This document shows, in pieces, positions 2,870-50,251 of a stretch of DNA of 64,000 nucleotides. A model generated the notes under the pieces. It was not told where the DNA came from. It made no database searches and saw nothing but the letters and a program-made list of their open reading frames with translations. How positions within the stretch are numbered: the stretch's first letter is position 1; each line of letters begins with the position of its first letter. Source of the stretch: a virus; IMG/VR virus record IMGVR_UViG_3300037851_001164, positions 3,904 through 67,903 of that record; one strand, written 5' to 3'. Both the position numbers and the translations under genes were made by a program.

Positions 2870-4107
2870 CAGCGCTCCCAGTTGGCGTAGTCGTTACGCT
2901 CGGCCTTCGTGTCGCGGTCGTGCTTGTGCTTCCAGGTGCGCACCGCCGCCTTCCAGTCCCGCATCGGGCTCTTGCCCACCATCCAGCCCTTGGTGGCGTA
3001 GAAGTCCACGAACTCGCTGCCGTCGAGGCGAAAGCCGATGCTGCGCGCGTACTCCTCGACCTCGTAGGCGGTGGGGCGCTTCATCGACCTGGCACCGTTG
3101 ACGCCAGGCTCCGCGGCAGCCGCGGTCCCCGGGGTCGGCGCGTCCCCTGGCCGCTGGCGCGGCGTGCGCGGCAGCTCCGCGGGGCGCGCCCTGGCCTGGG
3201 CCAGGTGGTCGTCGATGAGCGCCAGCATCTCGGCCTCGCTGGGCGCCGGGCCCGCCGGTGCTCCGGCCGGCTGGCGGAGCGGTGCGGACGGACCCTGGGG
3301 AGCCCGCGGCAGCGGCTCTTCGGGGTTGCCTTCTTGCCCCGAAGGGGCGTCACCTACCTCCGGCGAGGGCGCAGCCCGAGACGCTACGGCCTCGCCCCCG
3401 GTCACGGTCCCGGTGGGTAGGGGGGGGCTATAGGGGGGGTTCTTGGATCTCCCTCTCCCTTTCTTAGCCGTGACAGGCCCGTGACAGGTGCGTGACTCCT
3501 CACAGCTTGTCACGCGTGACAGGTCGGTGACCGGCGTGTGACCTGGGCGCCCGGGATCGTCACTAGTCACCGGCGCCTCGCCGTGACCAGTCGCACCATG
3601 ACGCTCCCCAACCAGCTCTCTCAGTCTCGAGGTCGGCGTATCCCAGGACGGCACCTGCCCGCAGGCGCGCAGCACCTCGAACATGTGCCTGCGCTCGGCG
3701 CGCTCACGCTCCTTGCGCGCATTGGCAGACACCTGGGCGTCCTTGTAGCGCAGCCGCTCTTCCCACGCCTGCTCCACGATCTCCGCCACGGTGCGGTGGT
3801 ACAGCCGCCCGTCCCGGCACTTGATCCAGCCGCGCAGCGCCATCGCGCACACCTTGCGCCACTTCTTCAGGTCGCGGCCATACCCGGCCAACGCGGCCAG
3901 CACGCGCTCATCGTCCGGCAGGCTCCCGGCTGGCACCTGATGGAACGCGCGGCCCCACAGCACCAGTCCGGCGCGAAACTCGGCGTCGGTGGCCAGCGCG
4001 AAGAACTCGGAGTTGAACAGCCGGCCGAGATCTAGCTTCATCCACTGATAGCCTCTGAGGTCCACCTCGGCGGACACCAGCGGCTCGGGCAGCTCGGCCT
4101 GGCTCAT
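2866..4107 (-). CDS. Replication initiator (DUF1376/YdaU-like N-terminus, replisome-organiser C-terminus)
   Basis: WMKLDLGRL..SEF, VPAGSLPDDERVLA..AG, DGRLYH; C-terminal FVDFYATKGWMVGKSPMRDWKAAVRTW. Confidence 0.8.
   Translation of the reverse strand: MSQAELPEPLVSAEVDLRGYQWMKLDLGRLFNSEFFALATDAEFRAGLVLWGRAFHQVPAGSLPDDERVLAALAGYGRDLKKWRKVCAMALRGWIKCRDGRLYHRTVAEIVEQAWEERLRYKDAQVSANARKERERAERRHMFEVLRACGQVPSWDTPTSRLRELVGERHGATGHGEAPVTSDDPGRPGHTPVTDLSRVTSCEESRTCHGPVTAKKGRGRSKNPPYSPPLPTGTVTGGEAVASRAAPSPEVGDAPSGQEGNPEEPLPRAPQGPSAPLRQPAGAPAGPAPSEAEMLALIDDHLAQARARPAELPRTPRQRPGDAPTPGTAAAAEPGVNGARSMKRPTAYEVEEYARSIGFRLDGSEFVDFYATKGWMVGKSPMRDWKAAVRTWKHKHDRDTKAERNDYANWERW
3401..3602. repeat. GTGAC/GTCAC iteron cluster; candidate replication origin inside the initiator gene
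   Basis: GTGAC at 3470, 3481, 3492, 3516, 3527, 3538, 3583; GTCAC at 3401, 3509, 3559, 3566; two triplets at 11-bp period. Confidence 0.65.
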
Positions 4108-38286: not shown

Positions 38287-39738
38287 TTACGCGAACGGCT
38301 GCCACACGGAGTTGTTGGGCAGGATGTTCTTGATCACCACGTGCTGCCGGCGCTTGCTGATGCGCAGGTAGCCGAAGAGCAGCAGCGCCCACGGCACCAC
38401 CGCGGCGTTCACCGGGTAGAGCTGGAAGCGCGTCAGCGGCAGGAGCTGGCGCCAGGTGATGGCGGTGTGCCCCGGGGTAAGGTTGAGCACGAAGGCCGGC
38501 GTGGTGCCCGGGATGTCCAGGTTCTCGTCCACGTAGGTGGTGGTCGCACCGGCCACGGCGACCTTCGCCATGTAGCGGAAGTCGTTGGTGGCGTTGGTGC
38601 CGTTCTTGCGGCTGCGGTAGATGACGTAGCCGGTCTCCTGGGCCCCCGCCGAGCGGTTGATGGTCAGCGTCACCTTCTGGCCCGAGGTGACCGCGATCTG
38701 CGCGGTCTTGGTGACCGTGGACTGGCCGGCAGCGTTCACGCCCGCCACCGCGTAGTAGTAGTTGCCGGCACGCGCCGCGGTGAACTTGTTGACCGAGGTG
38801 CCGGTGGCGGCCACGCCGGTCACCGACGCCGGGGCGATGGACGCCTGCGCCGTGGCGATGGCCGAGTAACGCAGCTCGAACGGGGTCTGCTGGTCCTGGT
38901 CGGGCACGAACACGTCGGCCTGGGTGCGGATGTTGCCGTGGCTGGTGCGGATCCCGACCACCGGGGCGCCCACCTCGATGCCGCCGCCAGGCACGTCGGC
39001 CAGGGGCACGCGAAAGGCCGGGTCGAGCCCGGTATCCCAGTCGGCCTGCACCTTGGGCGACATGAAGAGATCCGTGGGCACGCCGAAGTTGCCGTAGCCG
39101 GCGATGATGGCGGCCGCGTCGTTGATGAGATTCACGCTGGCCAGGCTCGCCGCGTCGGCGTTGAGCACGTGGTCGGCGAGGTTGGCGTCGCCGGCGATCT
39201 GCTTGAAGATGCCGTCGTACTCGGTGGGCACCACCGCGCTGTCGCCGAAGAAGGACAGCACCTCGGCATCGCGCAGCAGCCGCAGGGTGCCCATCTGGTT
39301 CTCGATGGCCTCGGCCTCGACGATGCTGCTCTGCAGGGTGGCGACGTAGCTCACCTTGCACTGGGTCATCAGGTACTTCACCAGCCCGACCCGGCGCGCG
39401 TAGGTGCCGTTGGCCTCGCTGATGGTGCCGCTCTCGGTGTTGGTCGATCCGCCCGGGAAGCCGCCCTGGTCGGTGGCCTCGGTCCACTCGTCCACCGTCG
39501 CCGTGGCGTTGGGCTTGGGCAGGGCGTTGAAGAGCTTGAAGTGCTTGTTGTCGGCCAAGGTGGCCTGCAGGGTCGCGTCCAGCGATTGTACGCGGATCGC
39601 GGCGCCCCCGGTCAGCGCCGACATGTCGGTGCCGTAGCCCGCCTCCAGGGCCTTGCGCAGAGCCTCCAGGTCGCCCTGCGGCATCTCGCCGGAGAGCGTG
39701 GGACCGCGCAGGGTCTGATTGATCAGGTTCTCGAGCAT
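38287..39738 (-). CDS. Major capsid protein, SPO1/Twort (Herelleviridae)-like
   Basis: LRKALEAGYG...GGAAIRVQSLD, VKYL, EVLSFFGDS and YDGIFKQI align by eye with phage K/A511 capsid motifs. Confidence 0.88.
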   Translation of the reverse strand: MLENLINQTLRGPTLSGEMPQGDLEALRKALEAGYGTDMSALTGGAAIRVQSLDATLQATLADNKHFKLFNALPKPNATATVDEWTEATDQGGFPGGSTNTESGTISEANGTYARRVGLVKYLMTQCKVSYVATLQSSIVEAEAIENQMGTLRLLRDAEVLSFFGDSAVVPTEYDGIFKQIAGDANLADHVLNADAASLASVNLINDAAAIIAGYGNFGVPTDLFMSPKVQADWDTGLDPAFRVPLADVPGGGIEVGAPVVGIRTSHGNIRTQADVFVPDQDQQTPFELRYSAIATAQASIAPASVTGVAATGTSVNKFTAARAGNYYYAVAGVNAAGQSTVTKTAQIAVTSGQKVTLTINRSAGAQETGYVIYRSRKNGTNATNDFRYMAKVAVAGATTTYVDENLDIPGTTPAFVLNLTPGHTAITWRQLLPLTRFQLYPVNAAVVPWALLLFGYLRISKRRQHVVIKNILPNNSVWQPFA

Positions 39739-39769
39739 GCTTGCTGTCTCCTCGTCGATGCGCGCGGCG

Positions 39770-40420
39770 TCAGGCCGCCTCGATGCGCTGCTTCAGGGTC
39801 GCCGGGATCTCCCGGCCGGAGTTGACGTAGCCCTCCGCCACCGCCACGTCTTCGCCGGTGATGCGCCCGGCCTTCTGGGCGGCCAGCGCCTTGGCCAGGA
39901 TCTCGCGCGGGGTCTTGCCGGGCTCGGCGACCGCACCGGGCCTCTCGTGCACGTCGAGCACGGACTTGCGCCCACGCCCCTGGCGGCCGATGGCCTTGAC
40001 CTGCCCAGCCAGGCTCTTGATGAGCTCGCTCTGCCGGTCGAGCGCCTGGCGCATGGCGCGCATGGCGGCCAGCGTCTGCCCCCGGGTGGCCTCGGCGGCC
40101 GCGACCCGGGTGTGCAGGGCCTTGAGCAGCGCCGTGCCGTCGTAGGCCTCGACCCTGCTGCCGTCGGCCAGCGTCACCTGGAAGGCCTTGCCGAAGGTCT
40201 CGTCGGCGTCGCTGTCGTCGTCGTCCTCGCCGCCCGCGCCGTCGGCCTCGTCGCCGTCCGGCTCGCCCTCCTCGTCGCCCTCGGGCGGGGCCCCGCCCTC
40301 CTCGCTCTCATCCTCCTCGTCGTCGCCGGCCGCGGCGTCCACCGGATAGGCCTTGTTCAGATCCTCGATCAGGGCCGCGAACTCGTCCGGCTGCCCCGTC
40401 TGCTGCGTCTGCTGCGTCAT
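39770..40420 (-). CDS. Scaffolding-like acidic protein
   Basis: Long D/E tract and coiled coil; lies between protease and capsid. Confidence 0.7.
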   Translation of the reverse strand: MTQQTQQTGQPDEFAALIEDLNKAYPVDAAAGDDEEDESEEGGAPPEGDEEGEPDGDEADGAGGEDDDDSDADETFGKAFQVTLADGSRVEAYDGTALLKALHTRVAAAEATRGQTLAAMRAMRQALDRQSELIKSLAGQVKAIGRQGRGRKSVLDVHERPGAVAEPGKTPREILAKALAAQKAGRITGEDVAVAEGYVNSGREIPATLKQRIEAA

Positions 40421-41277
40421 CGCGTGGTCCTCTTGCTGCGTAGATCGGTCAGGAAGCGCTCGACCCACTCGACCGCCTGCTCGCGGGTGAGCCCCAGGGC
40501 GCGCGCGGCGTAGACCGCCAGGCGCGCGGCGGACAGGCGCCCGAGCCGGCCCGCGCGGATGGCGGCGGCGAGGCGCTGGCGGAAGGCCGGGTAGTCGGCG
40601 GGCGCCCCGTCCAGGGACTGCCGGCGCAGGGCCGCGCCCCCGGTGAGCGTGGCGACGTCCGCGCCGTAGCCCGCCTCCAGGGCTTTGGCCAGATCCAGCC
40701 CCGCCGGGCCCCAGCTCTTGGCGAAGGCCGCGAACGGCACCGTGGTGACGGTGGGCACGGCCTGGTTGACCGGGGTCTTGGAAAAGCCGACGTTGGTCCA
40801 GCGCACCCGCCCGATCACCGAGCGCCGCGCCCCGCTGTCCGGGTCCACCTCGGTGCCCTTCTCGATCACCTGGCCGCCCACCGACGGATACCAGCGCGCC
40901 GGCGGCTGCAGCTCGGTCAGCGAGGCCCAGAAAGCGTTGGCGCGCTCGGCGGCCGGCCCGTCGCCCCGATAGATCTGCCCCTTGACCAGAGTGCGCCCGT
41001 CCATCACCGACACCTCGACCGGGCGGCCGATCTCGTATAGGTGGTAGTCGGCCACCCCGGCCTTGAGCCCGATCTGGGTCAGGTGGTCGAGATCCAGGTT
41101 GCCGTAGCGCAGGAAGTAGCTCGCCGACTCCTCCAGGGCCTTGGCCAGCACCACCTCGCCCTGCTGGTCCACCTGCTCGTTGGATGCCTCGAGGTAGACG
41201 AAGCGCTCCCCGCCCTCCTCGGCCAGGGTGGCCTTGAGGCAGTCGGCGATGCACAGATAGGACGTGTCGGCCTGCAT
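40417..41277 (-). CDS. Prohead protease
   Basis: FVYLEASNEQVDQQGEVV, LDLDH, IGRPV, SVGG (putative Ser); first gene of the head operon. Confidence 0.75.
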   Translation of the reverse strand: MQADTSYLCIADCLKATLAEEGGERFVYLEASNEQVDQQGEVVLAKALEESASYFLRYGNLDLDHLTQIGLKAGVADYHLYEIGRPVEVSVMDGRTLVKGQIYRGDGPAAERANAFWASLTELQPPARWYPSVGGQVIEKGTEVDPDSGARRSVIGRVRWTNVGFSKTPVNQAVPTVTTVPFAAFAKSWGPAGLDLAKALEAGYGADVATLTGGAALRRQSLDGAPADYPAFRQRLAAAIRAGRLGRLSAARLAVYAARALGLTREQAVEWVERFLTDLRSKRTTR

Positions 41278-41287
41278 GTCGCCCCGC

Positions 41288-41330
41288 AAACAAAAAGCCG
41301 CCATGCCGGCCTGGCCGGACCATGGCGGCT
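41288..41330 (-). terminator. Intrinsic terminator-like hairpin in the head-operon leader
   Basis: AGCCGCCATG...CATGGCGGCT followed by TTTTGTTT on the minus strand. Confidence 0.65.
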
Positions 41331-41399
41331 CAATCGCACTCGCCTGCTCGGGTCTATCCGGGAGGGAGGAGCACCAGGAGCCCTTTCGCTTCCGGGCTC

Positions 41400-41415
41400 A
41401 GGGTGGTGTCACGAC
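41400..41415 (-). promoter_or_regulatory. Candidate late promoter GTCGTGAC-N2-CACCCT
   Basis: Intergenic, upstream of the head operon. Confidence 0.55.
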
Positions 41416-41473
41416 ATGGGGAGGGGCAAGTTGTCACCGCAATTGCGGTGGTTGAGCACCGCAGTTGCGGTGC

Positions 41474-41695
41474 TCATGTCGGGTGGCGAAAGAACAGCAC
41501 CACCCGCTGGTGGATCTGCTGGTGCAGGGACTGAGAGAGCGGCACGTCCCCCCTGCACCGGGGGCAGACCAGGGCCAGGCCGGTGGCCTTGAGGATGACG
41601 CCGCGCGCGCGCAGCAGCGGCTCACCGCTGGCCGCCACGCTGGCGAGGTTGGCGTGGCAGTGTGGACAGGTGGCGACGGTGAGCGGGCCGCTCAC
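41474..41695 (-). CDS. Zinc-ribbon (Com-like) protein
   Basis: CPHC...LVCPRC. Confidence 0.65.
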   Translation of the reverse strand: MSGPLTVATCPHCHANLASVAASGEPLLRARGVILKATGLALVCPRCRGDVPLSQSLHQQIHQRVVLFFRHPT

Positions 41696-41949
41696 GCGAG
41701 CCGGGCACGGGCCCGGGCGATGACCTGCTCCAGGCGCCCGGCCTCGGCCCCCAGGGCCTCGTAGCGCGCGGCGGCCTCGTCCGAGGCGAGCGCCTTCGGC
41801 CGCAGCCGGTCGGCCTCGCGGCGCACGCTGGCCAGCCGGTCCTCGGCCCCGGCCAGGATGCGGGCCTCGACCGCCCGGGTGTGCTCGAGCTCGTGGTGCA
41901 GGTGCGCCAGCTCCCGGCGCATGCCGGCGGTCAGATCCTCGTCAGCCAT
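41692..41949 (-). CDS. Hypothetical coiled-coil protein
   Basis: Directly behind a late-promoter motif. Confidence 0.6.
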   Translation of the reverse strand: MADEDLTAGMRRELAHLHHELEHTRAVEARILAGAEDRLASVRREADRLRPKALASDEAAARYEALGAEAGRLEQVIARARARLA

Positions 41950-41955
41950 GCGGGG

Positions 41956-41971
41956 AGAGTAACGTCACGAC
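41956..41971 (-). promoter_or_regulatory. Candidate late promoter GTCGTGAC-N2-TACTCT
   Basis: -10-like hexamer ends 6 nt upstream of ATG 41949, the same geometry as at 24790. Confidence 0.6.
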
Positions 41972-42342
41972 GGGCCCCCGCCATCCCGCGCCCTGAGCAT
42001 CAGCTCCAGCCGGGCCAGGGCGTTCCAGGCCGTGTGCGCGGCGTGGGCGAGCCCTGAATCCCGGTCCGGGTCCTCGCCGGCCGCCTCGGCCAGCAGGTGG
42101 CGCCAGAGCGCGTCGGTGTAGCGCTCCCGCCCGTCCGGCACGTGCATCCAGCTACCGGGGCTGTACTTGATTGTGCCGTAGGTGCCCACCTCGCCCACCG
42201 CGGCCAGGGCCCGGGCGAAGCCGCCCAGCACCAGCCCCAGGCGCGGCTTGCCCGCGTCGAGCTTGGCCCCGGGCTCGTGCGGGGTGCGCCCGGTGGGGTC
42301 GGCCTCGCAGATCGCGTCGCCGCGCGCGATGCCGGCCTTCAT
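41965..42342 (-). CDS. dATP/dGTP diphosphohydrolase (DUF5664-like)
   Basis: GAKLDAGKPRLGLV, YG..KYSPGSW, YTDALWRH, DSGLAHAAH.AWNAL. Confidence 0.85.
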   Translation of the reverse strand: MKAGIARGDAICEADPTGRTPHEPGAKLDAGKPRLGLVLGGFARALAAVGEVGTYGTIKYSPGSWMHVPDGRERYTDALWRHLLAEAAGEDPDRDSGLAHAAHTAWNALARLELMLRARDGGGPS

Positions 42343-45300
42343 GCCGCCAGGGCGAAGAGGTCCGCCCCGCCCGCCGCCACCTGCCGCTCCTGTCGCGCCC
42401 GCCGGATCATCCCGGCGATGCCGGTGTCGTCCAGCCCCTCGAGCGGGCTGGTGAGCACCTCGCGCAGGGCATACTTCTCGGCCAGGCGCTTCCTGGCCGC
42501 CCGCTCGGTGGGGTGGTCGGCCACCAGGTCGATGAGCTCCACCTCGTGCTTCTGCCCCAGGCGATCGATGCGACCGTTGCGCTGGGCGTGCCCCTTGGCG
42601 GTGTCCGGGGTGTCGTACTGCACGAGCCACCGTCCGCGCTGCAGGTTGAGCCCCACCTGAGCCGCATCCGAGGCCACCAGGATGTCGGCCGCGGGCTCGC
42701 CCTCCTCGGGGCTGAAGGCGCGGCGCCGGGCATCCTTCTCCTTCGCCCCGTCCTCGCCGGTGACGGTGACCACCCGATGCCCCTCGCGGGTGAGACGCTC
42801 AGCAATCTGCCGCACCGCTTCGCGCGAGTGCGCGAACACCACCCCGGGTCGGCCCCGGCGCTCGCCGGCGATCTTCGTCAGGTGGTCGAGCTTGGCTGCC
42901 TGCGGGTGCTCATTCAGCACCCGCCGGTGGGCGGCATCGCGCACCATGCCGAGCGCCAGGGCGAGCCGCTTCGCGGTCGCCTCGTGCTCGGCCGCGGGCA
43001 CACCCGCGAACGCCCCGGGCGAGAGCTGGCGTAGGGCCGCGACATCCACCTGGCCGCGCATACGGGCGAGCCGGGCACGGGCGAGCAGCCGATCAGTGCC
43101 CTCGAGCGCGGCCTTCTGGGCGCCGTTGACCGGCACGGTCTCCTCGCGCCGCTCGGCGCGCACCCCGGAGCCGATGCGCCCCGGGTAGAAGTGGCGCAGC
43201 ATCTCGCGGCGCAGCTGCTCCTTCGCCGCCGCCGTGTCCACCCCGTAGCGGCGCAGGAAGGCATCCCGGTCCGCGTAGCGCACCGGGTCCATCTTGTGCA
43301 GGATGTCGAAGGCCTCAGAGGGGTCGTTCTTGACCGGATCTGCAGAGGCCGACACGTAGTACGGGGTCTCGTGGGCCACCGCATCCACCACGTGGGCGAG
43401 CAGGCTGCTCTGCTTGCCGCGGCGGTTCAGCAGATCGTGCCCCTCGTCCACCATCAGGTAGTCGAAGCCGATGCCCTCGCGCCCCAGGGTGTCGCGGGCC
43501 CAGGAGCGGCGCTCGCCCTCGCTCATGGCAGACAGGCGCTGGGCCATCTCGGCCTCGCCGATGCCGGCATGCTTGGCGCCCAGGTGAGCCAGGTCGTCGC
43601 GCAGAGCCTGGTGGGTGACCACGGCGAAGTGGGTGTTCGCATCGCGATAGGCGGCCAGGCGCGACTCGCGAGAGGCGCCGGGCTCGATGTGCCAGCGGTA
43701 CTTGCCCGGCTTCAGGTAGCGCAGGGCCTCGCCCGCGAACTGCCCCTGCACCACCGAGGGGACCACGAACAGACCGCGCTTGACCTTGCCCTGGCCGTGC
43801 AGGTGGGTGAAGGCGCCCAGGCCGATGACGGTCTTGCCCGAGCCCACACCCTGGGCCAGCACCACGCGCCTGCCGTGCTCGATGAGCTTCACCGCGCGCT
43901 GCTGGTTGACGTACTTGCCGTCCATCGACGCGCGCCACAGGGCCACCGGCTGCCCGGGGCGAAAGTTCGGGCCCACCACCCCCATCATGCCGGCGATGGC
44001 ATGCTCGGCGGCGGCGCCCAGGGTGTGGCGCTCGTCGGCGGCGAGCGGTAGCTCTTTCGCCGGCTCTGGCTCGGTCGCGAAGAAGCCCATCTGTGACTGC
44101 TGCATGGCCTCGACCCGCTCGCGAGCCGCCGCCAGCTTGTCGGACACCGCGCCGGAGGCGTAGCGCCCGGCCACCCGGTCGCGCAGGCTGTCGATGAGCG
44201 CGCGCTGCTCGGCCAGGCGCCGCTCGCGGGCCTGCGGGTCCACCGCGTCCAGGTGATCCAGGTTCCCCCGCACCACGGTGCGCCCGAGCTTCAGCGGCGA
44301 GTGTGGGGCGAGCTTGTTGTAGGCATCGGCGAAGGCCTTCGCCACCCGCCCGCGCACCAGGTCCTGCACCGCCGTGTAGGCCTGCGGCTGGCCGCCCATC
44401 ACCTGCACGTAGCGGCCCCAGGTGAGCCCTGAGGCGTTGAGTTGCTCGGCGAGCTCATCGCGGCGGGCCTTCCAGGCGGTCCACGCCGGGTTGGTGCCGC
44501 GCCCGAACATGTCGTCCACCTCCCGCTCGGGCTCGTTGGCCGCCAGGTCCTCGAGCTGACCGCGCAGCTCGGCGGTCCGCGGGTCCTCGTGAGCCACGTT
44601 GGCGGCGAACCAGTCGCGCAGGGCCCGGCGCTCGCGCGGAGCCAGATCGCCCACCGGGCGGTAGGCCACGGTGCCCGCTGGCTCGTGGGCCAGCGCCCGG
44701 TGCAGGGCCTCGACTGCCGAGCGGTCCACCGGGAAGCTCTGGCGGTGCAGAGGCGAGCGCCGGGCGCCGAAGCGGTCTGCGACGAAGGCATCGGCCAGGG
44801 CCTCGAAGGCCTCCTGGTGGGCCTCGGCGCGCACCGGCTTGCCCTTGGCGTCCTTCAGCGGCGCCACCTGGTCGATGGCCGCGAAGTAGGCCGTGCGCTG
44901 GTCCTCCGGGACCTTCCGTGCCAGGTCCTGGGAGAGTAGATCGGCCAGGATGTCGGCCGGCGGATCGCCGTCCGCGGTGCGCCCACCGATGTAGTCGCGC
45001 ACCGACTGCGCCAAGTCATTGCCCGGGGTGAAGGGTTCGGCGAGCCGCGGGGCCACCCCGGCTGGCACCGGCATGGCCAGATCTGGCCGGTCGGAGATCC
45101 CGAGCGGCAGCCAGCCGGGCTCGTCGCGCCGCCCCTCGATGATGTCGAGCGCCGCCCGCGCGTGCTCCAGGTCCTCGCGCGCCACCGGCCGCGACAGCCG
45201 GTCCAGCCCCGCCGGAGTGACCGAGAGCATGCGCTGTCCGGCCACCTCGTCCACCTGGTAGTCGCCATCGCCCAGGCCGATGGCGCGGGCCCGGGCGATG

Positions 45301-47579
45301 GCGGACTCCAGACTCGCGGTGCCCATGGGCACCTGCAGGGGCGCGTCGCGCCGGCCCTGCTTCAGGGCCACGATAAGCGCGGCGTTGGCCTCGAACTCGC
45401 CCAGGGCCACGCCCAGCGCCCGCCGGGCCTCGGCCAGGGCCTGCGCGCGGCGCCGGTTGGCCTCCTGGGCCAGGGCCAGATCGTGGCCGTCCACGGCGGC
45501 GCCCACGTCGATCTCCGCGGCCACCTGGCGCGCGGCCGCGGCCTGCGCCAGTGCCCGCTTGCCCTCCTCCTGGTAGCGCCCCACGTGCCACTGCTCGAGC
45601 GCGCCGAGCGCGTCGGCCACGTCCTCGGCAGACAGGTCCGCGTGCAGGCGCCGGGCGAGCACCTGGGCCGCCCCGGCCACGCCCAGCACGTCCACCACGT
45701 CGCGATCCACCAGCGAGGCCCCGCCCGCGGCCAGCGCCAGGGCGTTCACCGCGTTGTGGGCGCCCACGCCCACGTGCCGGCCCAGGGACTCGGCGCCGCC
45801 GAGCTTCCCCACCTCGTCCAGGAACGAGCGGGTGGCGATGCTGGCCAGGTCGTCAGCCAGCATGGACCGGATCTCGTCGTCCTCGACCGGCCGCTTGCCC
45901 ACCTCCAGCACGTAGGCCTTCTCCTCTGGCACCGGGGCCTGCTCGATCTTGCGCAGGGCCTCGCGGGCCTGGGCGCGCACCTGCTGCAGGGCCTTGCTCG
46001 CCTTCAGGAGCTCCACCGCCTCGCGGGCCGGCAGCACCCTGGCGCGGTCCACCGTGGGGGCCTCGATGCGCACCTGGTCCAGCTCGCGCCGAATGCCCTC
46101 GACGGTGGCCTTGCGCCTGGCCAGCCCCTCGCGCTGCTCCTCGGGGCGCTGGGCGCGCAAGCGCTCGGCCTCGGCCCGCACCTCCTCCTCGGTGGCGCCC
46201 GCGGCCTGCGCCCGCTTGCCGTAATCGGTGGCGTAGCCCAGCCCCCGATCGGGCGGGGCCACCGGGTCGAGATCCGTAGTCGCGAGGGTATCCGGGTCGT
46301 CGGAGTGCAGGGGGATCTCGCCGAAGGCCTCGTCGCGCGCCTCGGCATCGGCGAGCAGGCGCTGGCGCTGGGCCTCGACGGACTCCTGGGCGCGCGCCAG
46401 CAGCTCGGCGTGGTGCTTGAGGCGGGCCTTGTTCTCGGCCTGCTCGGTCATGGGCCGCTCTGGCTGCCACTCCAGGTCCTCGGGCGACCAGCCCATGGCC
46501 CGGGCCACGGTGTGGATGAGCTCGCGCTCCTGGGCGCGCACCTGGGTGGAAACCGCCTCCTTCTGCTTCCTCTTGGCGACGTAGGTGCCGGCTTCCTTGT
46601 CGCGCCTCCTCTGCTCGGCCTGGCGCGCCCGGTGGGCCTCTGCTTTGGCCCTGGCCTCCTTCTTGTACTCTGCCTCGCTCCTGACCCCGCGCAGCTTGAG
46701 GTAGTTGAGCTTGCCGCCGGCACCGCCCACCACGTGGAACACGCCGGAGCCCTCCTTGGTCTCGCGGATCAGGACCGGGGTTCCTTTGGATTCCTTATCC
46801 CCGTGTGCATGGATCGTTATCCATCTCTCACCTGGTCTAAGCGCCTTATCGAGCGCCAGAGCCTCCGGCTCGTCACCGCGCCAGAGATCGATGGATACGC
46901 CCCGGGCGAGGGGCGGGTGCGCCTTGAGCAGCCCGTCCAGAGTAGCTAGACTGTGATTCGTCCGACCACTACCGGCCTCGCAAGAGGTGGTGACACCCGG
47001 GGGAGCAATCCCGCCCCCATTTGGGGCTTCAAGCTGGGGGAATGTGGAGCAAGGCCCGCTCTTCTGGAGCGGGCCTTCATTTTTCCGTCCTCCACGACGG
47101 TGCATTAGCCTTGCAACATTTTCGATGGAACGGAAATGCGCACTGCTGAAGCCATACGTCTTCGATGGCGGGTGCCACTTCAAGACAACCGTGTAATGCT
47201 CGCCGCCGACGTTGCGCTCCAAGAACAGATCGGCATCCCAATCGCGCAATCGCCGCGTCGGGTACTCGATGACTGAGAGGATGCGCCCCATCGCCTGCGC
47301 CCGCCTGGCGTCGAATACGCGCACCCCGGTCTTCTGCCTCCCGCCCGCATCCGTCGTGTAGGCGTGGTCGTTCCTGGCATCGAACCGCACCCGGATCGGG
47401 ATCTCGCGCCCGCCCGAGTGCACCACCAGCGGCAGGGTCTTGCCGCCCAGGTGCTCGCGCCAGTAGGCGCTGGCGTCGTCATGGGTGGCGAGGTGCACGC
47501 TCGACGGCACGTGCGTGCCACCGTGCTGCGGCCCCCACCAGCCCTGGCCCGGGCCCTTGAGCAGCAGCAGGGCGCGCAT
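42339..47579 (-). CDS. Giant SNF2-type helicase polyvalent protein (1746 aa) with an N-terminal nuclease-like domain
   Basis: AQGVGSGKT, VDEGH, SDAAQVGLNLQ, QRNGRIDRLGQ; start MRALLLLKG at 47579. Confidence 0.85.
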   Translation of the reverse strand: MRALLLLKGPGQGWWGPQHGGTHVPSSVHLATHDDASAYWREHLGGKTLPLVVHSGGREIPIRVRFDARNDHAYTTDAGGRQKTGVRVFDARRAQAMGRILSVIEYPTRRLRDWDADLFLERNVGGEHYTVVLKWHPPSKTYGFSSAHFRSIENVARLMHRRGGRKNEGPLQKSGPCSTFPQLEAPNGGGIAPPGVTTSCEAGSGRTNHSLATLDGLLKAHPPLARGVSIDLWRGDEPEALALDKALRPGERWITIHAHGDKESKGTPVLIRETKEGSGVFHVVGGAGGKLNYLKLRGVRSEAEYKKEARAKAEAHRARQAEQRRRDKEAGTYVAKRKQKEAVSTQVRAQERELIHTVARAMGWSPEDLEWQPERPMTEQAENKARLKHHAELLARAQESVEAQRQRLLADAEARDEAFGEIPLHSDDPDTLATTDLDPVAPPDRGLGYATDYGKRAQAAGATEEEVRAEAERLRAQRPEEQREGLARRKATVEGIRRELDQVRIEAPTVDRARVLPAREAVELLKASKALQQVRAQAREALRKIEQAPVPEEKAYVLEVGKRPVEDDEIRSMLADDLASIATRSFLDEVGKLGGAESLGRHVGVGAHNAVNALALAAGGASLVDRDVVDVLGVAGAAQVLARRLHADLSAEDVADALGALEQWHVGRYQEEGKRALAQAAAARQVAAEIDVGAAVDGHDLALAQEANRRRAQALAEARRALGVALGEFEANAALIVALKQGRRDAPLQVPMGTASLESAIARARAIGLGDGDYQVDEVAGQRMLSVTPAGLDRLSRPVAREDLEHARAALDIIEGRRDEPGWLPLGISDRPDLAMPVPAGVAPRLAEPFTPGNDLAQSVRDYIGGRTADGDPPADILADLLSQDLARKVPEDQRTAYFAAIDQVAPLKDAKGKPVRAEAHQEAFEALADAFVADRFGARRSPLHRQSFPVDRSAVEALHRALAHEPAGTVAYRPVGDLAPRERRALRDWFAANVAHEDPRTAELRGQLEDLAANEPEREVDDMFGRGTNPAWTAWKARRDELAEQLNASGLTWGRYVQVMGGQPQAYTAVQDLVRGRVAKAFADAYNKLAPHSPLKLGRTVVRGNLDHLDAVDPQARERRLAEQRALIDSLRDRVAGRYASGAVSDKLAAARERVEAMQQSQMGFFATEPEPAKELPLAADERHTLGAAAEHAIAGMMGVVGPNFRPGQPVALWRASMDGKYVNQQRAVKLIEHGRRVVLAQGVGSGKTVIGLGAFTHLHGQGKVKRGLFVVPSVVQGQFAGEALRYLKPGKYRWHIEPGASRESRLAAYRDANTHFAVVTHQALRDDLAHLGAKHAGIGEAEMAQRLSAMSEGERRSWARDTLGREGIGFDYLMVDEGHDLLNRRGKQSSLLAHVVDAVAHETPYYVSASADPVKNDPSEAFDILHKMDPVRYADRDAFLRRYGVDTAAAKEQLRREMLRHFYPGRIGSGVRAERREETVPVNGAQKAALEGTDRLLARARLARMRGQVDVAALRQLSPGAFAGVPAAEHEATAKRLALALGMVRDAAHRRVLNEHPQAAKLDHLTKIAGERRGRPGVVFAHSREAVRQIAERLTREGHRVVTVTGEDGAKEKDARRRAFSPEEGEPAADILVASDAAQVGLNLQRGRWLVQYDTPDTAKGHAQRNGRIDRLGQKHEVELIDLVADHPTERAARKRLAEKYALREVLTSPLEGLDDTGIAGMIRRARQERQVAAGGADLFALAA

Positions 47580-50251
47580 CACCCGGCCTTCAGCAGCAGG
47601 ATGCGTGCGGCCTTGCGCAGGCCCCGCCCACCGACCCATGCCGGCACGGCATGCCCCATGTCCTCCAGGTAGCGGTGAGCAGCATCGGTCAGCGTCACAT
47701 CGGGCACGCCGCCCACGTCGCGCAGCACCGCCTCGGGGTCGATGCCCTTCTCGCGCGCCAGCGCCCGGAACTGCTCGATGCGCTGATAGGCGGTATGCAG
47801 GTCTGACCAATCCATGCCGGCCGCGGTCTCGGCCTGGTAGCGACCGCCGGCAGAAGGTCTGCCATCGAGCACGCGCGCATGCTCCAGGCTCTGCGCCGCT
47901 GCGCGCAGCTTGGCCGCGGACACGGCGATACGGGTGCGCACGCTCTCGGGGACCCGACCACTTAGGCTGGCAATACGGTCCTCCACCTGGGCGAGTCGGC
48001 GGGTGAGCGCCGGATCCACTGGCTGCCCGCGCGCCTGGCGGGTGAACATCCAATACTGTCGCTGCCGCTCCGCCTCCAGATTGGAGCGCTCACGCTCGGC
48101 CTCCTCCAGTGACAGAGAACCGACATCCGTCATGGTGCCAAGTGCCGCAGACGGCTGCGTTACCAGCTCTTCGGCTGGCGGTAGTGCCGGCTCGGCAGCG
48201 GGCGGTGCCCCGTCGCCCACCCCGGCCAGGCGCTTGGCATGGTACAGGGCGGCATTGGAGCGCTGGCGCTGCCAGGCGCCCTCGCTCGGCGCCCAGCGAA
48301 AGCCCGCCTGCTTGAGCTGCCGGCGGGTGGCCTCGTCGGGCTTGCCGGGGAAGAACACCTGCACCCGGTTGGCCTCCGGGCTATCCACCACCCTGGCCGC
48401 GGCGCCCTCCCACTCGCCCGCCGGGGTCGCGTCCACCCGGTGCATGGTGTCGATACGTGCCTTGAGCCGCCGGATCTCCGCGCCCATGTTCTGCAGCTGA
48501 TAGCTCGGGATGCCGATGCGCCCGCCATAGACTGAGCCGTCTGGCGTCTTCAGCTTCGCTATCGTGCTCTCGGACAGGCCCATGGCGGCCAGGGCGGCGT
48601 CATCGCCCCGGCGCAGCGCCGCGTTGATGGCTACAAACTGCTCGCGTTGCCGCTCGAGCTTGGCCAGCTTCTCCTGCAGCTTGGCCACGGCATCAGGGTC
48701 GTCCGAGGAGACCGCGCTGCTACTCTCGGCAGCATCCGCCCGGCGCTCCAGGTCAGCCGCCTCCTTGCTGGCCTCGACACCGGCACGCATGGATCGGTCG
48801 ATCTTCCTGATGTCGCTGCGGTGGCGCTTCTCGCTGTGATGCCCGACCAGGATGGGCTGCCCCAGCGGGATCATGTCGCCGATCTTCTTCGCCCGGTCGA
48901 AGGCAGCGGCCGCCTCGACGCGCCGCTTCTCCGCGCGCGCCCGCAGCCGCTCGATGTGGGCCTCGCGCCGCTCGGCGAAGTCCGCTCGGCCGCCGGAGCG
49001 CTGCGTCGGGCTCAGGACCGGCAGACTGGAGAGCTTGGTGACCAAGCTCTCTACCAGGTGATGCCGCTCCATCATGCTCGGTCGGATCACGTCTGGAGAA
49101 CCACGCTCCCAGCCGGGCGGCATGCGCTGATCTTCGGGTACCAGCCGGGCCACACCGTGTCGGTTATCTTCGCCGGTGGGGCGGTAGTACAGGGCCATGT
49201 TTAGGTTGGCGAGGAGCTGATCCCGAGTCAGGGTGAGCACTGCATCCTCGGCGATGCGCCGTACCGCAGCCCACCTCGACTTGCTATCTTCTGGCAGAAC
49301 ATCGAGCCCCTGCTTTGGCAGCGGGGTGTACCAAGACGGAGTCTCCGGCTCGCTTGGTGCGGCTGGTACGGGCGGAGGCTCGCTCATCGGGCGCACCTGC
49401 GAAATCGCCGCAGTGAACTCGCGCCCCTCGGGATCGCGCAGGCGAAGCCGCAGCCCGCCGGGCAGCACCTCCGGGACGGTGTGCGGACCCTTGCGGTGCT
49501 TCTGGGCGCCGAAGGTCTCGACCTTCTGGCCCGGGGTGAACGGGGCAGGCTCGTCGTCTTCGTCCGGTCCCTGCGGGGCGGGTGCGGCCCGTGCGTCCGG
49601 GTTGACCTCGACCCACTGCTGCACCCACTTCTTGGCCGCGGTCAGGTTCTCGAGATCGTGTTTCTCGCCATGGGTGGCAAGGGTCTGCGGGTCGAACACG
49701 TAAGCGGTATATCTGCCGCCGAGCAACGGCCCGGCAAGGCGTGCCACGAGACCACCAGGCAGCTCAGTGCGCCGGTATCCGTCCGGGGTCTGCGACTCGT
49801 GATGCCACTGGATCCGGGTGCTCTCATGAGGCGTGTCGCTCTGCGCACCTGGGCTGCCATTCCCGCGCCCAGTCATCACCGCCTCCAGAGCGCGCGGATT
49901 GCTGGAATTGGGATCGTAGAGCTTCGCCTTCTTCCTGCGTCCTTTCTGGCCGCGCTTCAGATGGCCCGATATACCCGTGGAGTTCATGTACTTCTGGCGC
50001 CAGGCCCAAGCGTCCTCCCGCGACTCAGCCCAGAACATTTCCTCGCCATCATCGTTCACGATCGACCACCCCATGGGGGGGCGCGACTCGCTCTTATCCG
50101 GGGCCTTCTTGCGCGTGGCCGTGTACGGTGCCACGTAGGTGCCCTGCGGGTTCACGTAGCCCGACACCTGGACCGGGGTCTCGAACAGGTCCGCGGTCTG
50201 CTTATCGCCGCGCCGGCGGGCCTTCATGAACAGCAGTGCGCGCATCGTCAT
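47579..50251 (-). CDS. Polyvalent protein with a DUF3560 domain
   Basis: IPLGQPILVGHHSEKRHR..IDRSM, AVSSDDPDAV.KL, NRVQVFFPGKPDE..R.LK..GFRWAPS. Confidence 0.8.
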   Translation of the reverse strand: MTMRALLFMKARRRGDKQTADLFETPVQVSGYVNPQGTYVAPYTATRKKAPDKSESRPPMGWSIVNDDGEEMFWAESREDAWAWRQKYMNSTGISGHLKRGQKGRRKKAKLYDPNSSNPRALEAVMTGRGNGSPGAQSDTPHESTRIQWHHESQTPDGYRRTELPGGLVARLAGPLLGGRYTAYVFDPQTLATHGEKHDLENLTAAKKWVQQWVEVNPDARAAPAPQGPDEDDEPAPFTPGQKVETFGAQKHRKGPHTVPEVLPGGLRLRLRDPEGREFTAAISQVRPMSEPPPVPAAPSEPETPSWYTPLPKQGLDVLPEDSKSRWAAVRRIAEDAVLTLTRDQLLANLNMALYYRPTGEDNRHGVARLVPEDQRMPPGWERGSPDVIRPSMMERHHLVESLVTKLSSLPVLSPTQRSGGRADFAERREAHIERLRARAEKRRVEAAAAFDRAKKIGDMIPLGQPILVGHHSEKRHRSDIRKIDRSMRAGVEASKEAADLERRADAAESSSAVSSDDPDAVAKLQEKLAKLERQREQFVAINAALRRGDDAALAAMGLSESTIAKLKTPDGSVYGGRIGIPSYQLQNMGAEIRRLKARIDTMHRVDATPAGEWEGAAARVVDSPEANRVQVFFPGKPDEATRRQLKQAGFRWAPSEGAWQRQRSNAALYHAKRLAGVGDGAPPAAEPALPPAEELVTQPSAALGTMTDVGSLSLEEAERERSNLEAERQRQYWMFTRQARGQPVDPALTRRLAQVEDRIASLSGRVPESVRTRIAVSAAKLRAAAQSLEHARVLDGRPSAGGRYQAETAAGMDWSDLHTAYQRIEQFRALAREKGIDPEAVLRDVGGVPDVTLTDAAHRYLEDMGHAVPAWVGGRGLRKAARILLLKAG

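Follow-up and report, generated by a model that had tools for sequence, protein, structure and literature searches.

The head-maturation protease encoded in a 64,000-nucleotide stretch of viral DNA (IMG/VR record IMGVR_UViG_3300037851_001164, positions 3,904 to 67,903; hereafter the window) contains a copy of the segment with which the mature major capsid protein of the same phage is predicted to begin. The protease gene is an open reading frame (ORF) of 295 residues (41304..40417, minus strand), which belongs to the PHROGs family phrog_1028 (head maturation protease, E=7e-33), and the capsid gene is an ORF of 483 residues (39738..38287, minus strand), which belongs to phrog_752 (major head protein, E=1e-85) and to the HK97-fold capsid family of SPO1 and phage 812. 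The protease copy of the shared segment (40609..40692, minus strand) covers residues 205-232, with a predicted scissile bond between Lys207 and Ala208 (codons 40686-40681). The capsid copy (39577..39660, minus strand) covers residues 27-54 and comprises the predicted cut site and the start of the mature N-terminal arm. BLASTP of the whole protease against the whole capsid protein shows a single significant match, which is ungapped and has 21 of 28 residues identical and 24 of 28 positive (E=3e-9), and the DNA of both segments shares an identical run of 21 bases. A 43-column hidden Markov model (HMM), built for the segment from 77 capsids, was run on the window translated in all six frames. It matches these two places only, with 77.5 and 49.2 bits; no third copy was found in this translation, where the next match has E=2.3. 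Protease residues 204-232 also match positions 20-48 of the capsid family profile phrog_752. The first-pass annotation, which was made from the sequence alone, had reported these two segments of 84 base pairs, and their coordinates on the minus strand are exact. It had also located one of them in the C-terminal region of the protease and had described both as the capsid N-terminal arm. The match is there, but the copy lies about two thirds along the protease and not at its end, and the segment includes, by homology, three leader residues in addition to the first 25 residues of the mature capsid protein.

The segment is conserved among the relatives of this protease. A locus search with a protease alignment as query, in place of a single protease sequence, which retrieved none, led to 80 viral contigs with a protease relative; 76 of them and the window gave a protease/capsid pair (77 loci), and nearly all of these pairs show a scaffold-like gene between protease and capsid. 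Large protein collections contain more than 800 relatives of the protease and more than 1000 of the capsid protein. Among cultured phages, the nearest relatives are ~90-kb myophages that infect Gram-negative hosts (Bordetella phage PHB04; Pseudomonas phages Touem01, Dolphis and Jeremy; Aeromonas phage ST4; and others), followed by Thermus phages and then by the Herelleviridae (SPO1, CP-51, and Staphylococcus K-like, Listeria P100-like and Enterococcus phages). The capsid-derived HMM finds the segment in all 77 proteases, with a median of 44.6 bits, and gives 25.7 and 27.7 bits on the SPO1 and CP-51 proteases, respectively. The protease copy is also present in phage 812/K, P100 and EFDG1, and is weak in the Thermus phages. 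Homologous proteases that lack the segment, which the first-pass annotation had named as the outcome that would speak against its proposal, are therefore not what the 77 close homologues and the Herelleviridae show. When conservation is expressed as the mean frequency of the commonest residue in 67 non-redundant proteases, no other stretch of the protease is as well conserved as the segment (0.75, versus 0.68 in the core and 0.54 and 0.38 in the two flanks). In the capsid protein, conservation is 0.40 in the leader and 0.80 in the segment, and 12 residues are invariant in 27 capsids: L27, K29, L31, G34, Y35, D38, G44, A47, R49, Q51, S52 and L53.

The protease copy follows the capsid protein of its own lineage. 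BLASTP of each protease against its own capsid protein gives E=1.5e-9 in the window (a repeat of the comparison above), 1.4e-10 in SPO1, 2e-11 in CP-51, 8e-11 in phage 812, 5e-11 in P100, 3e-13 in EFDG1 and 4e-5 in the Thermus phage Lalka8, whereas scores between lineages are far lower and the score matrix is block-diagonal. In the Herelleviridae the protease-capsid similarity spans about 40-60 residues. The SPO1 pair (L081:4490-4597 and L081:5586-5696) shows a lineage-specific sequence, and the phage 812 pair (L084:3063-3215 and L084:4501-4647) and those of CP-51, P100 and EFDG1 are similar in this respect. Over 33 aligned columns, the protease copy of phage 812 shares 19 residues with its own capsid protein, but only six with the window capsid protein and seven with the window protease copy; therefore, the two copies in one genome are more alike than the same copy across genomes. 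A failure of the protease segment to co-vary with the cognate capsid, the other outcome that had been named as adverse, is thus not observed, since the tracking holds lineage by lineage in SPO1, 812, P100 and the others. Within the Gram-negative clade, cognate identity is 0.607 versus 0.549 for non-cognate pairs, and several columns co-track, among them an Arg/Gly position and the one directly after the Lys, which holds Ala or Ser; the permutation p-values for this clade ignore phylogeny and are given no weight.

Codon use at the identical residues was compared with an expectation derived from the codon usage of each locus's own protease and capsid genes. The same codon is found 682 times versus 663.8 expected over all loci (ratio 1.03), and in 15 of 21 positions versus 12.9 expected in the window alone (p=0.24). 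A cruder codon table had given an excess of shared codons, a hint of gene conversion, which is gone with the gene-specific usage. Because same-codon use equals expectation, selection acts at the protein level, and there is no sign of recent gene conversion between the two genes.

The position of the predicted cut comes from phage 812, whose capsid protein is deposited as a 463-residue chain (5lii) and as a 439-residue chain (9row, 9rox and 9roz). HMMER alignments show that the 439-residue chain starts at residue 25 (Ser25), directly after a Lys, and that this start aligns with the bond between Lys29 and Ala30 of the window capsid protein, hence with the bond between Lys207 and Ala208 of the protease. 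The chain start in 9row and the invariant Lys29 predict, for this phage, a capsid leader of residues 1-29 (39652..39738, minus strand) which would be removed after Lys29. In the close clade the cut-site Lys is present in 62 of 62 capsids and in 61 of 62 proteases, followed by Ala, Ser or Gly and with a hydrophobic residue two positions before it.

The same short form of the site, hydrophobic-x-Lys followed by Ala, Ser or Gly, is frequent in the acidic scaffold-like protein encoded between the two genes (40420..39770, minus strand; 216 residues), whose gene overlaps the protease stop and whose role as scaffold is suggested by its position, its composition and the annotated SPO1 gp3.3. Compared with shuffled sequences, scaffolds show a 5- to 9-fold enrichment in short sites: 5 versus 0.6 expected in the window, 11 versus 1.3 in SPO1, 13 versus 1.4 in CP-51, and 7 versus 1.3 in phage 812. 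The window protease also contains 5 versus 0.6 expected, and the window capsid protein has essentially one, at the expected place. In 68 scaffolds the short sites fall at the conserved columns K23, K78, K100, K118, K135 and K177. The K177 site is present in 82% of them, and a cut there would detach the last ~40 residues, in a way reminiscent of the M site of herpesvirus scaffolds. None of the scaffold Lys sites is followed by the long downstream part of the shared segment. As far as can be judged from the sequences, this pattern fits a protease which cuts after hydrophobic-x-Lys, with one trim in the capsid protein, shredding of the scaffold and processing of itself.

The AlphaFold model of the protease is of moderate quality, with a predicted local distance difference test (pLDDT) of 70.7, and shows three parts. 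The catalytic core (40717..41232, minus strand; about residues 25-196) is beta-rich and modelled with moderate confidence; the linker that holds the shared segment is of low confidence, with pLDDT 30-39 at residues 211-230; and the C-terminal three-helix domain (40423..40593, minus strand; residues 238-294, with helices at 238-250, 259-269 and 274-294) has a pLDDT of about 90. The core has an assemblin-like fold: Foldseek matches the model to T4 gp21 (5jbl, E=2.6e-5, prob 1.0) and then to several herpesvirus assemblins. His74 and Ser141 are invariant in 21 protease homologues and are candidate catalytic residues, a role assigned from family knowledge and not from superposition on the gp21 residues. 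The predicted cut site, which has the substrate consensus, is located in the linker after the core, between it and the C-terminal part, so that a cut between Lys207 and Ala208 is predicted to release the C-terminal domain together with the segment copy. This domain shows no scaffold or capsid similarity (hhalign probability of 0.1% versus the 68 scaffolds), and for this reason a nested protease-scaffold architecture of the herpesvirus or lambda type was rejected. No natural protease-scaffold fusion was found among the protease relatives. The sole longer relative, P0245 (563 residues, from an ENA metagenome contig), was rejected as a fusion since it looks like an assembly frameshift artefact; it reads from protease through a proline/arginine-rich out-of-frame stretch into scaffold-like sequence. 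The AlphaFold model of the capsid protein is poor (pLDDT 55.7, and below 50 in the N-terminal 160 residues), and the fold of the arm is not readable in it.

The shared segment may be described as a maturation module of two parts. One is a cut site, in which Ala, Ser or Gly comes after hydrophobic-x-Lys; the other corresponds to the first residues of the mature capsid protein and would comprise about 25 of them in the window phage and up to about 45 in the Herelleviridae. In the capsid protein, the cut would remove the variable 29-residue leader. In the protease, the co-evolving copy would occupy a flexible linker between the gp21-like core and the three-helix domain. A core, a substrate-type cut site and a C-terminal part, in this order, are the layout of self-releasing precursors, and it is therefore proposed that the protease is still a full-length precursor when it enters the procapsid, with its C-terminal part holding it, and that it then cuts itself between Lys207 and Ala208 by the recognition used on the capsid protein. 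This self-cut would free the catalytic core, which would lead to degradation of the scaffold at its many Lys sites. Since the scaffold sites lack the downstream part and a bare cut site needs few residues, some partner must read the 25-45 residues in both proteins. A single partner may read both, and the most likely one is the protease itself, by means of an extended substrate-docking surface. We infer the cleavage events in this phage, as well as the identity of this partner, from the observations above. The favoured reading, with about an even chance of being right, is that the protease copy is a self-release site read like the capsid site, and that the protease uses the downstream stretch as an extended docking surface, which would tie its self-release to capsid trimming.

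The first-pass annotation had offered two roles for the segment, docking of the protease into the shell lattice or a self-cleavage site with the capsid specificity. The second fits the site aligned to the phage 812 start, with its Lys followed by Ala or Ser, the near-invariance of this Lys and the enrichment in the scaffolds, but it leaves the residues beyond the cut unaccounted for. About 25 to 45 residues downstream of the cut are conserved and co-vary, which is more than a bare cut site accounts for, and neither self-cleavage nor lattice docking alone is sufficient.

Several points weigh against self-release with extended docking. Self-cleavage of the protease, in this phage and in its relatives, is a prediction from sequence, and the mature start of phage 812 is read from the length of the deposited chain and not from a paper. 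The protease contains further short sites at residues 53, 106, 147 and 194, and the cut need not be at 207. The 25-45 downstream residues exceed the need of a cut site, and an exosite is one option among others to explain them. The co-variation argument is carried by the deep lineages only: tree-aware pair tests in the Gram-negative clade, using a capsid-body tree, show 1-7 independent changes per column, with p of at least 0.25, and have no power. Finally, the Bacteroides phage DAC16 has the capsid site, and a protease copy is undetectable in it. Its capsid gene (L087:5046-6449) starts only nine residues ahead of the conserved Lys-Ala site, and its putative protease (L087:3458-4306) matches the window protease with E=0.005.

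A different use of the same segment is possible, although on balance doubtful: the mimic would be an encapsidation handle, in which the partner of the capsid arm, either the scaffold C-terminus or the shell, also holds the protease copy, and the built-in cut site releases the enzyme. If true, this would be an undescribed way to package and time a maturation protease, both in the Herelleviridae (SPO1, phage K and A511/P100) and in the large ~90-kb Gram-negative myophage clade.

With the scaffold as partner, its C-terminal capsid-binding part would grip the capsid N-arm as well as the protease copy and carry the protease into the procapsid core, the cut site being secondary. In P22 and 80alpha, scaffolds bind the capsid N-arms, and a long co-varying likeness on the mature side of the cut is what a common binding partner is expected to produce. 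The low confidence of the segment on its own in the protease model is in line with this, and so is the conserved scaffold K177 site, at which the last ~40 residues would be freed, like at the herpesvirus M site. However, the arm cannot be placed with a capsid model of this quality, neither similarity nor co-variation with the scaffold has been demonstrated, and the confidently modelled helical domain at the protease C-terminus could equally well be the handle. Gripping by the scaffold is rather unlikely.

Docking in the shell lattice, as first suggested, ranks below the other docking partners and is improbable. The copy would sit in the groove of a capsid subunit that receives the N-arm of its neighbour, fixing the protease to the inner shell. 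The lineage co-variation suits this proposal equally, but once a shell is complete each groove is occupied by a capsid arm, and a mimic would compete with assembly. Mass spectrometry of purified virions has detected the prohead protease in a P100-like phage (PMC12282133) and in a K-like phage (PMC5618024). The presence of the protease in Herelleviridae virions is compatible with a fragment that stays bound; however, neither report contains peptide maps, the protease is residual in the view of the authors, and the two virion proteomes do not discriminate among the readings.

There is an equally slim chance that the copy is a latch: as a pseudo-substrate it would fold back to fill the substrate groove of the same protease molecule and keep the enzyme quiet until assembly, when the copy would be cut or displaced by the capsid arms. 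The linker adjoins the catalytic core, the copy is near-identical to the real substrate and the segment is the most conserved stretch of the protease, as a latch would have it. But the scissile Lys-Ala is retained, so that the copy would be cut rather than inhibit, and none of the evidence bears on the timing of protease activity. It is very improbable that the copy is a functionless relic, in which case the protease gene would have acquired a 5' piece of the capsid gene and exchange of DNA would maintain the likeness: both genes lie on one strand at a distance of about 1 kb and have the identical 21-base run in common, but shared codons are as frequent as codon bias predicts, and the copy is the best conserved part of the protease across phages of Pseudomonadota and Bacillota.

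Self-release at a substrate motif has a counterpart in the Salmonella phage SPN3US, whose gp21-type protease gp245 removes its own 64-residue C-terminal propeptide at the motif used on the capsid and other head proteins (PMC10052503). The window protease and gp245 share the fold class and the removal, predicted in the window, of the protease's own C-terminal part at a substrate motif, with 64 residues in gp245 and a predicted 88 in the window protease. They differ in the motif, which is Ala-x-Glu in SPN3US and hydrophobic-x-Lys in the window, where cleavage is a prediction. In the passages considered here, no long capsid similarity past the cut site is mentioned for gp245, whereas in the window phage and its relatives about 25-45 residues match and co-change.

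The window protease also resembles the herpesvirus assemblin precursor (UL26) in the order of its parts, with a catalytic domain, a cut site of substrate consensus and a C-terminal part for procapsid incorporation, and in having a related protease fold. The UL26 precursor contains a release (R) and a maturation (M) site, and releases itself at the R site. In contrast to the window protease, whose C-terminal part shows no scaffold similarity and whose copied element comes from the capsid protein, the C-terminal part in herpesviruses is the scaffold, by way of nested genes. In the Staphylococcus phage 80alpha, capsid protein and scaffold share an N-terminal leader which is cut by the host protease Prp. 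Both systems have two head-assembly proteins with the same cut site, trimmed (in the window, as predicted) by one protease. In 80alpha it is the removed leader that is alike, and a host enzyme does the cutting; in the window the likeness is mainly on the side that would be retained, and the protease itself is the other carrier.

The C-terminal region of the HK97 gp4 protease reportedly directs encapsidation, and would thus be another case of a maturation protease with its C-terminal region as targeting part. Unlike the window phage, HK97 has no separate scaffold, and its protease-capsid likeness is weak and non-significant: gp4 versus gp5 gives only a match with E=0.018 at the protease N-terminus and not in the C-terminal region. 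This match joins gp4 residues 20-45 (L088:3405-3482) and gp5 residues 90-118 (L088:4295-4381), with 12 of 29 positions identical. The gp5 stretch is the one around the known HK97 maturation cut between Lys103 and Ser104. The likeness is probably due to chance, though it is of the same kind as that in the window. T4 gp21 shows no such similarity to gp23, gp24 or gp22 (E of at least 0.2).

Self-processing at a substrate motif and C-terminal targeting parts are known in maturation proteases. A full-text literature search found no description of a capsid-like segment in the proteases of this family, and a long co-evolving copy of the mature capsid N-terminus inside a protease appears not to have been described before. 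How a maturation protease is loaded and how it is restrained from acting early is understood for a few model phages only, and the literature search gave no account of protease loading or timing for this family, to which belong K/812, a therapeutic phage of Staphylococcus, P100, a biocontrol phage of Listeria, and SPO1, a classic phage of Bacillus. The copy is a concrete peptide, open to deletion, to swaps between lineages and to reporter fusion, and if it suffices for loading, foreign proteins could be packed into these capsids by tagging them with it. As an annotation rule, the segment would make mature capsid N-termini predictable across more than a thousand metagenomic relatives.

The window has a G+C content of 71.7%, and its protease, scaffold-like and capsid genes are consecutive on the minus strand. 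The order protease-scaffold-capsid is found in the window, in at least 70 related loci, and in SPO1, CP-51, phage 812, P100 and EFDG1. A Pfam scan shows no family for the protease at E<=0.01 and none for the capsid protein except a sub-threshold PPC match, and the scaffold-like protein has no match in Pfam or PHROG scans. Searched against PDB sequences, the capsid protein matches 9vel (SPO1 Gp6.1, E=7.5e-37, residues 17-458), 5lii (phage 812, E=1.6e-19, residues 26-472) and 9row (E=1.3e-18), and the first two of these solved Herelleviridae-type capsids show homology over its full length. In SPO1, CP-51, phage 812, P100 and EFDG1 the portal gene is directly upstream of the protease gene. A portal was not recognised among the window ORFs scanned up to 63.6 kb. 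The region upstream of the window protease (41305-48053, minus strand) contains two small ORFs without PHROG match (41474-41695 and 41692-41949) and, further upstream, an ORF of 1904 residues (42339-48053, minus strand). Capsid residues ~289-401 (38536-38874, minus strand) form a beta-rich insertion domain, which is confidently modelled (pLDDT above 90) and weakly matches the PPC pre-peptidase domain (Pfam PF04151, E=0.0019, below the cut-off) and phrog_8040 (head closure Hc3, E=7e-4). In the Thermus phage Lalka8 (PQ109075.1), the record annotates a clustered regularly interspaced short palindromic repeats (CRISPR) region and a gene encoding a TnpB-family transposase directly downstream of the major capsid gene (L082:7185-8714).

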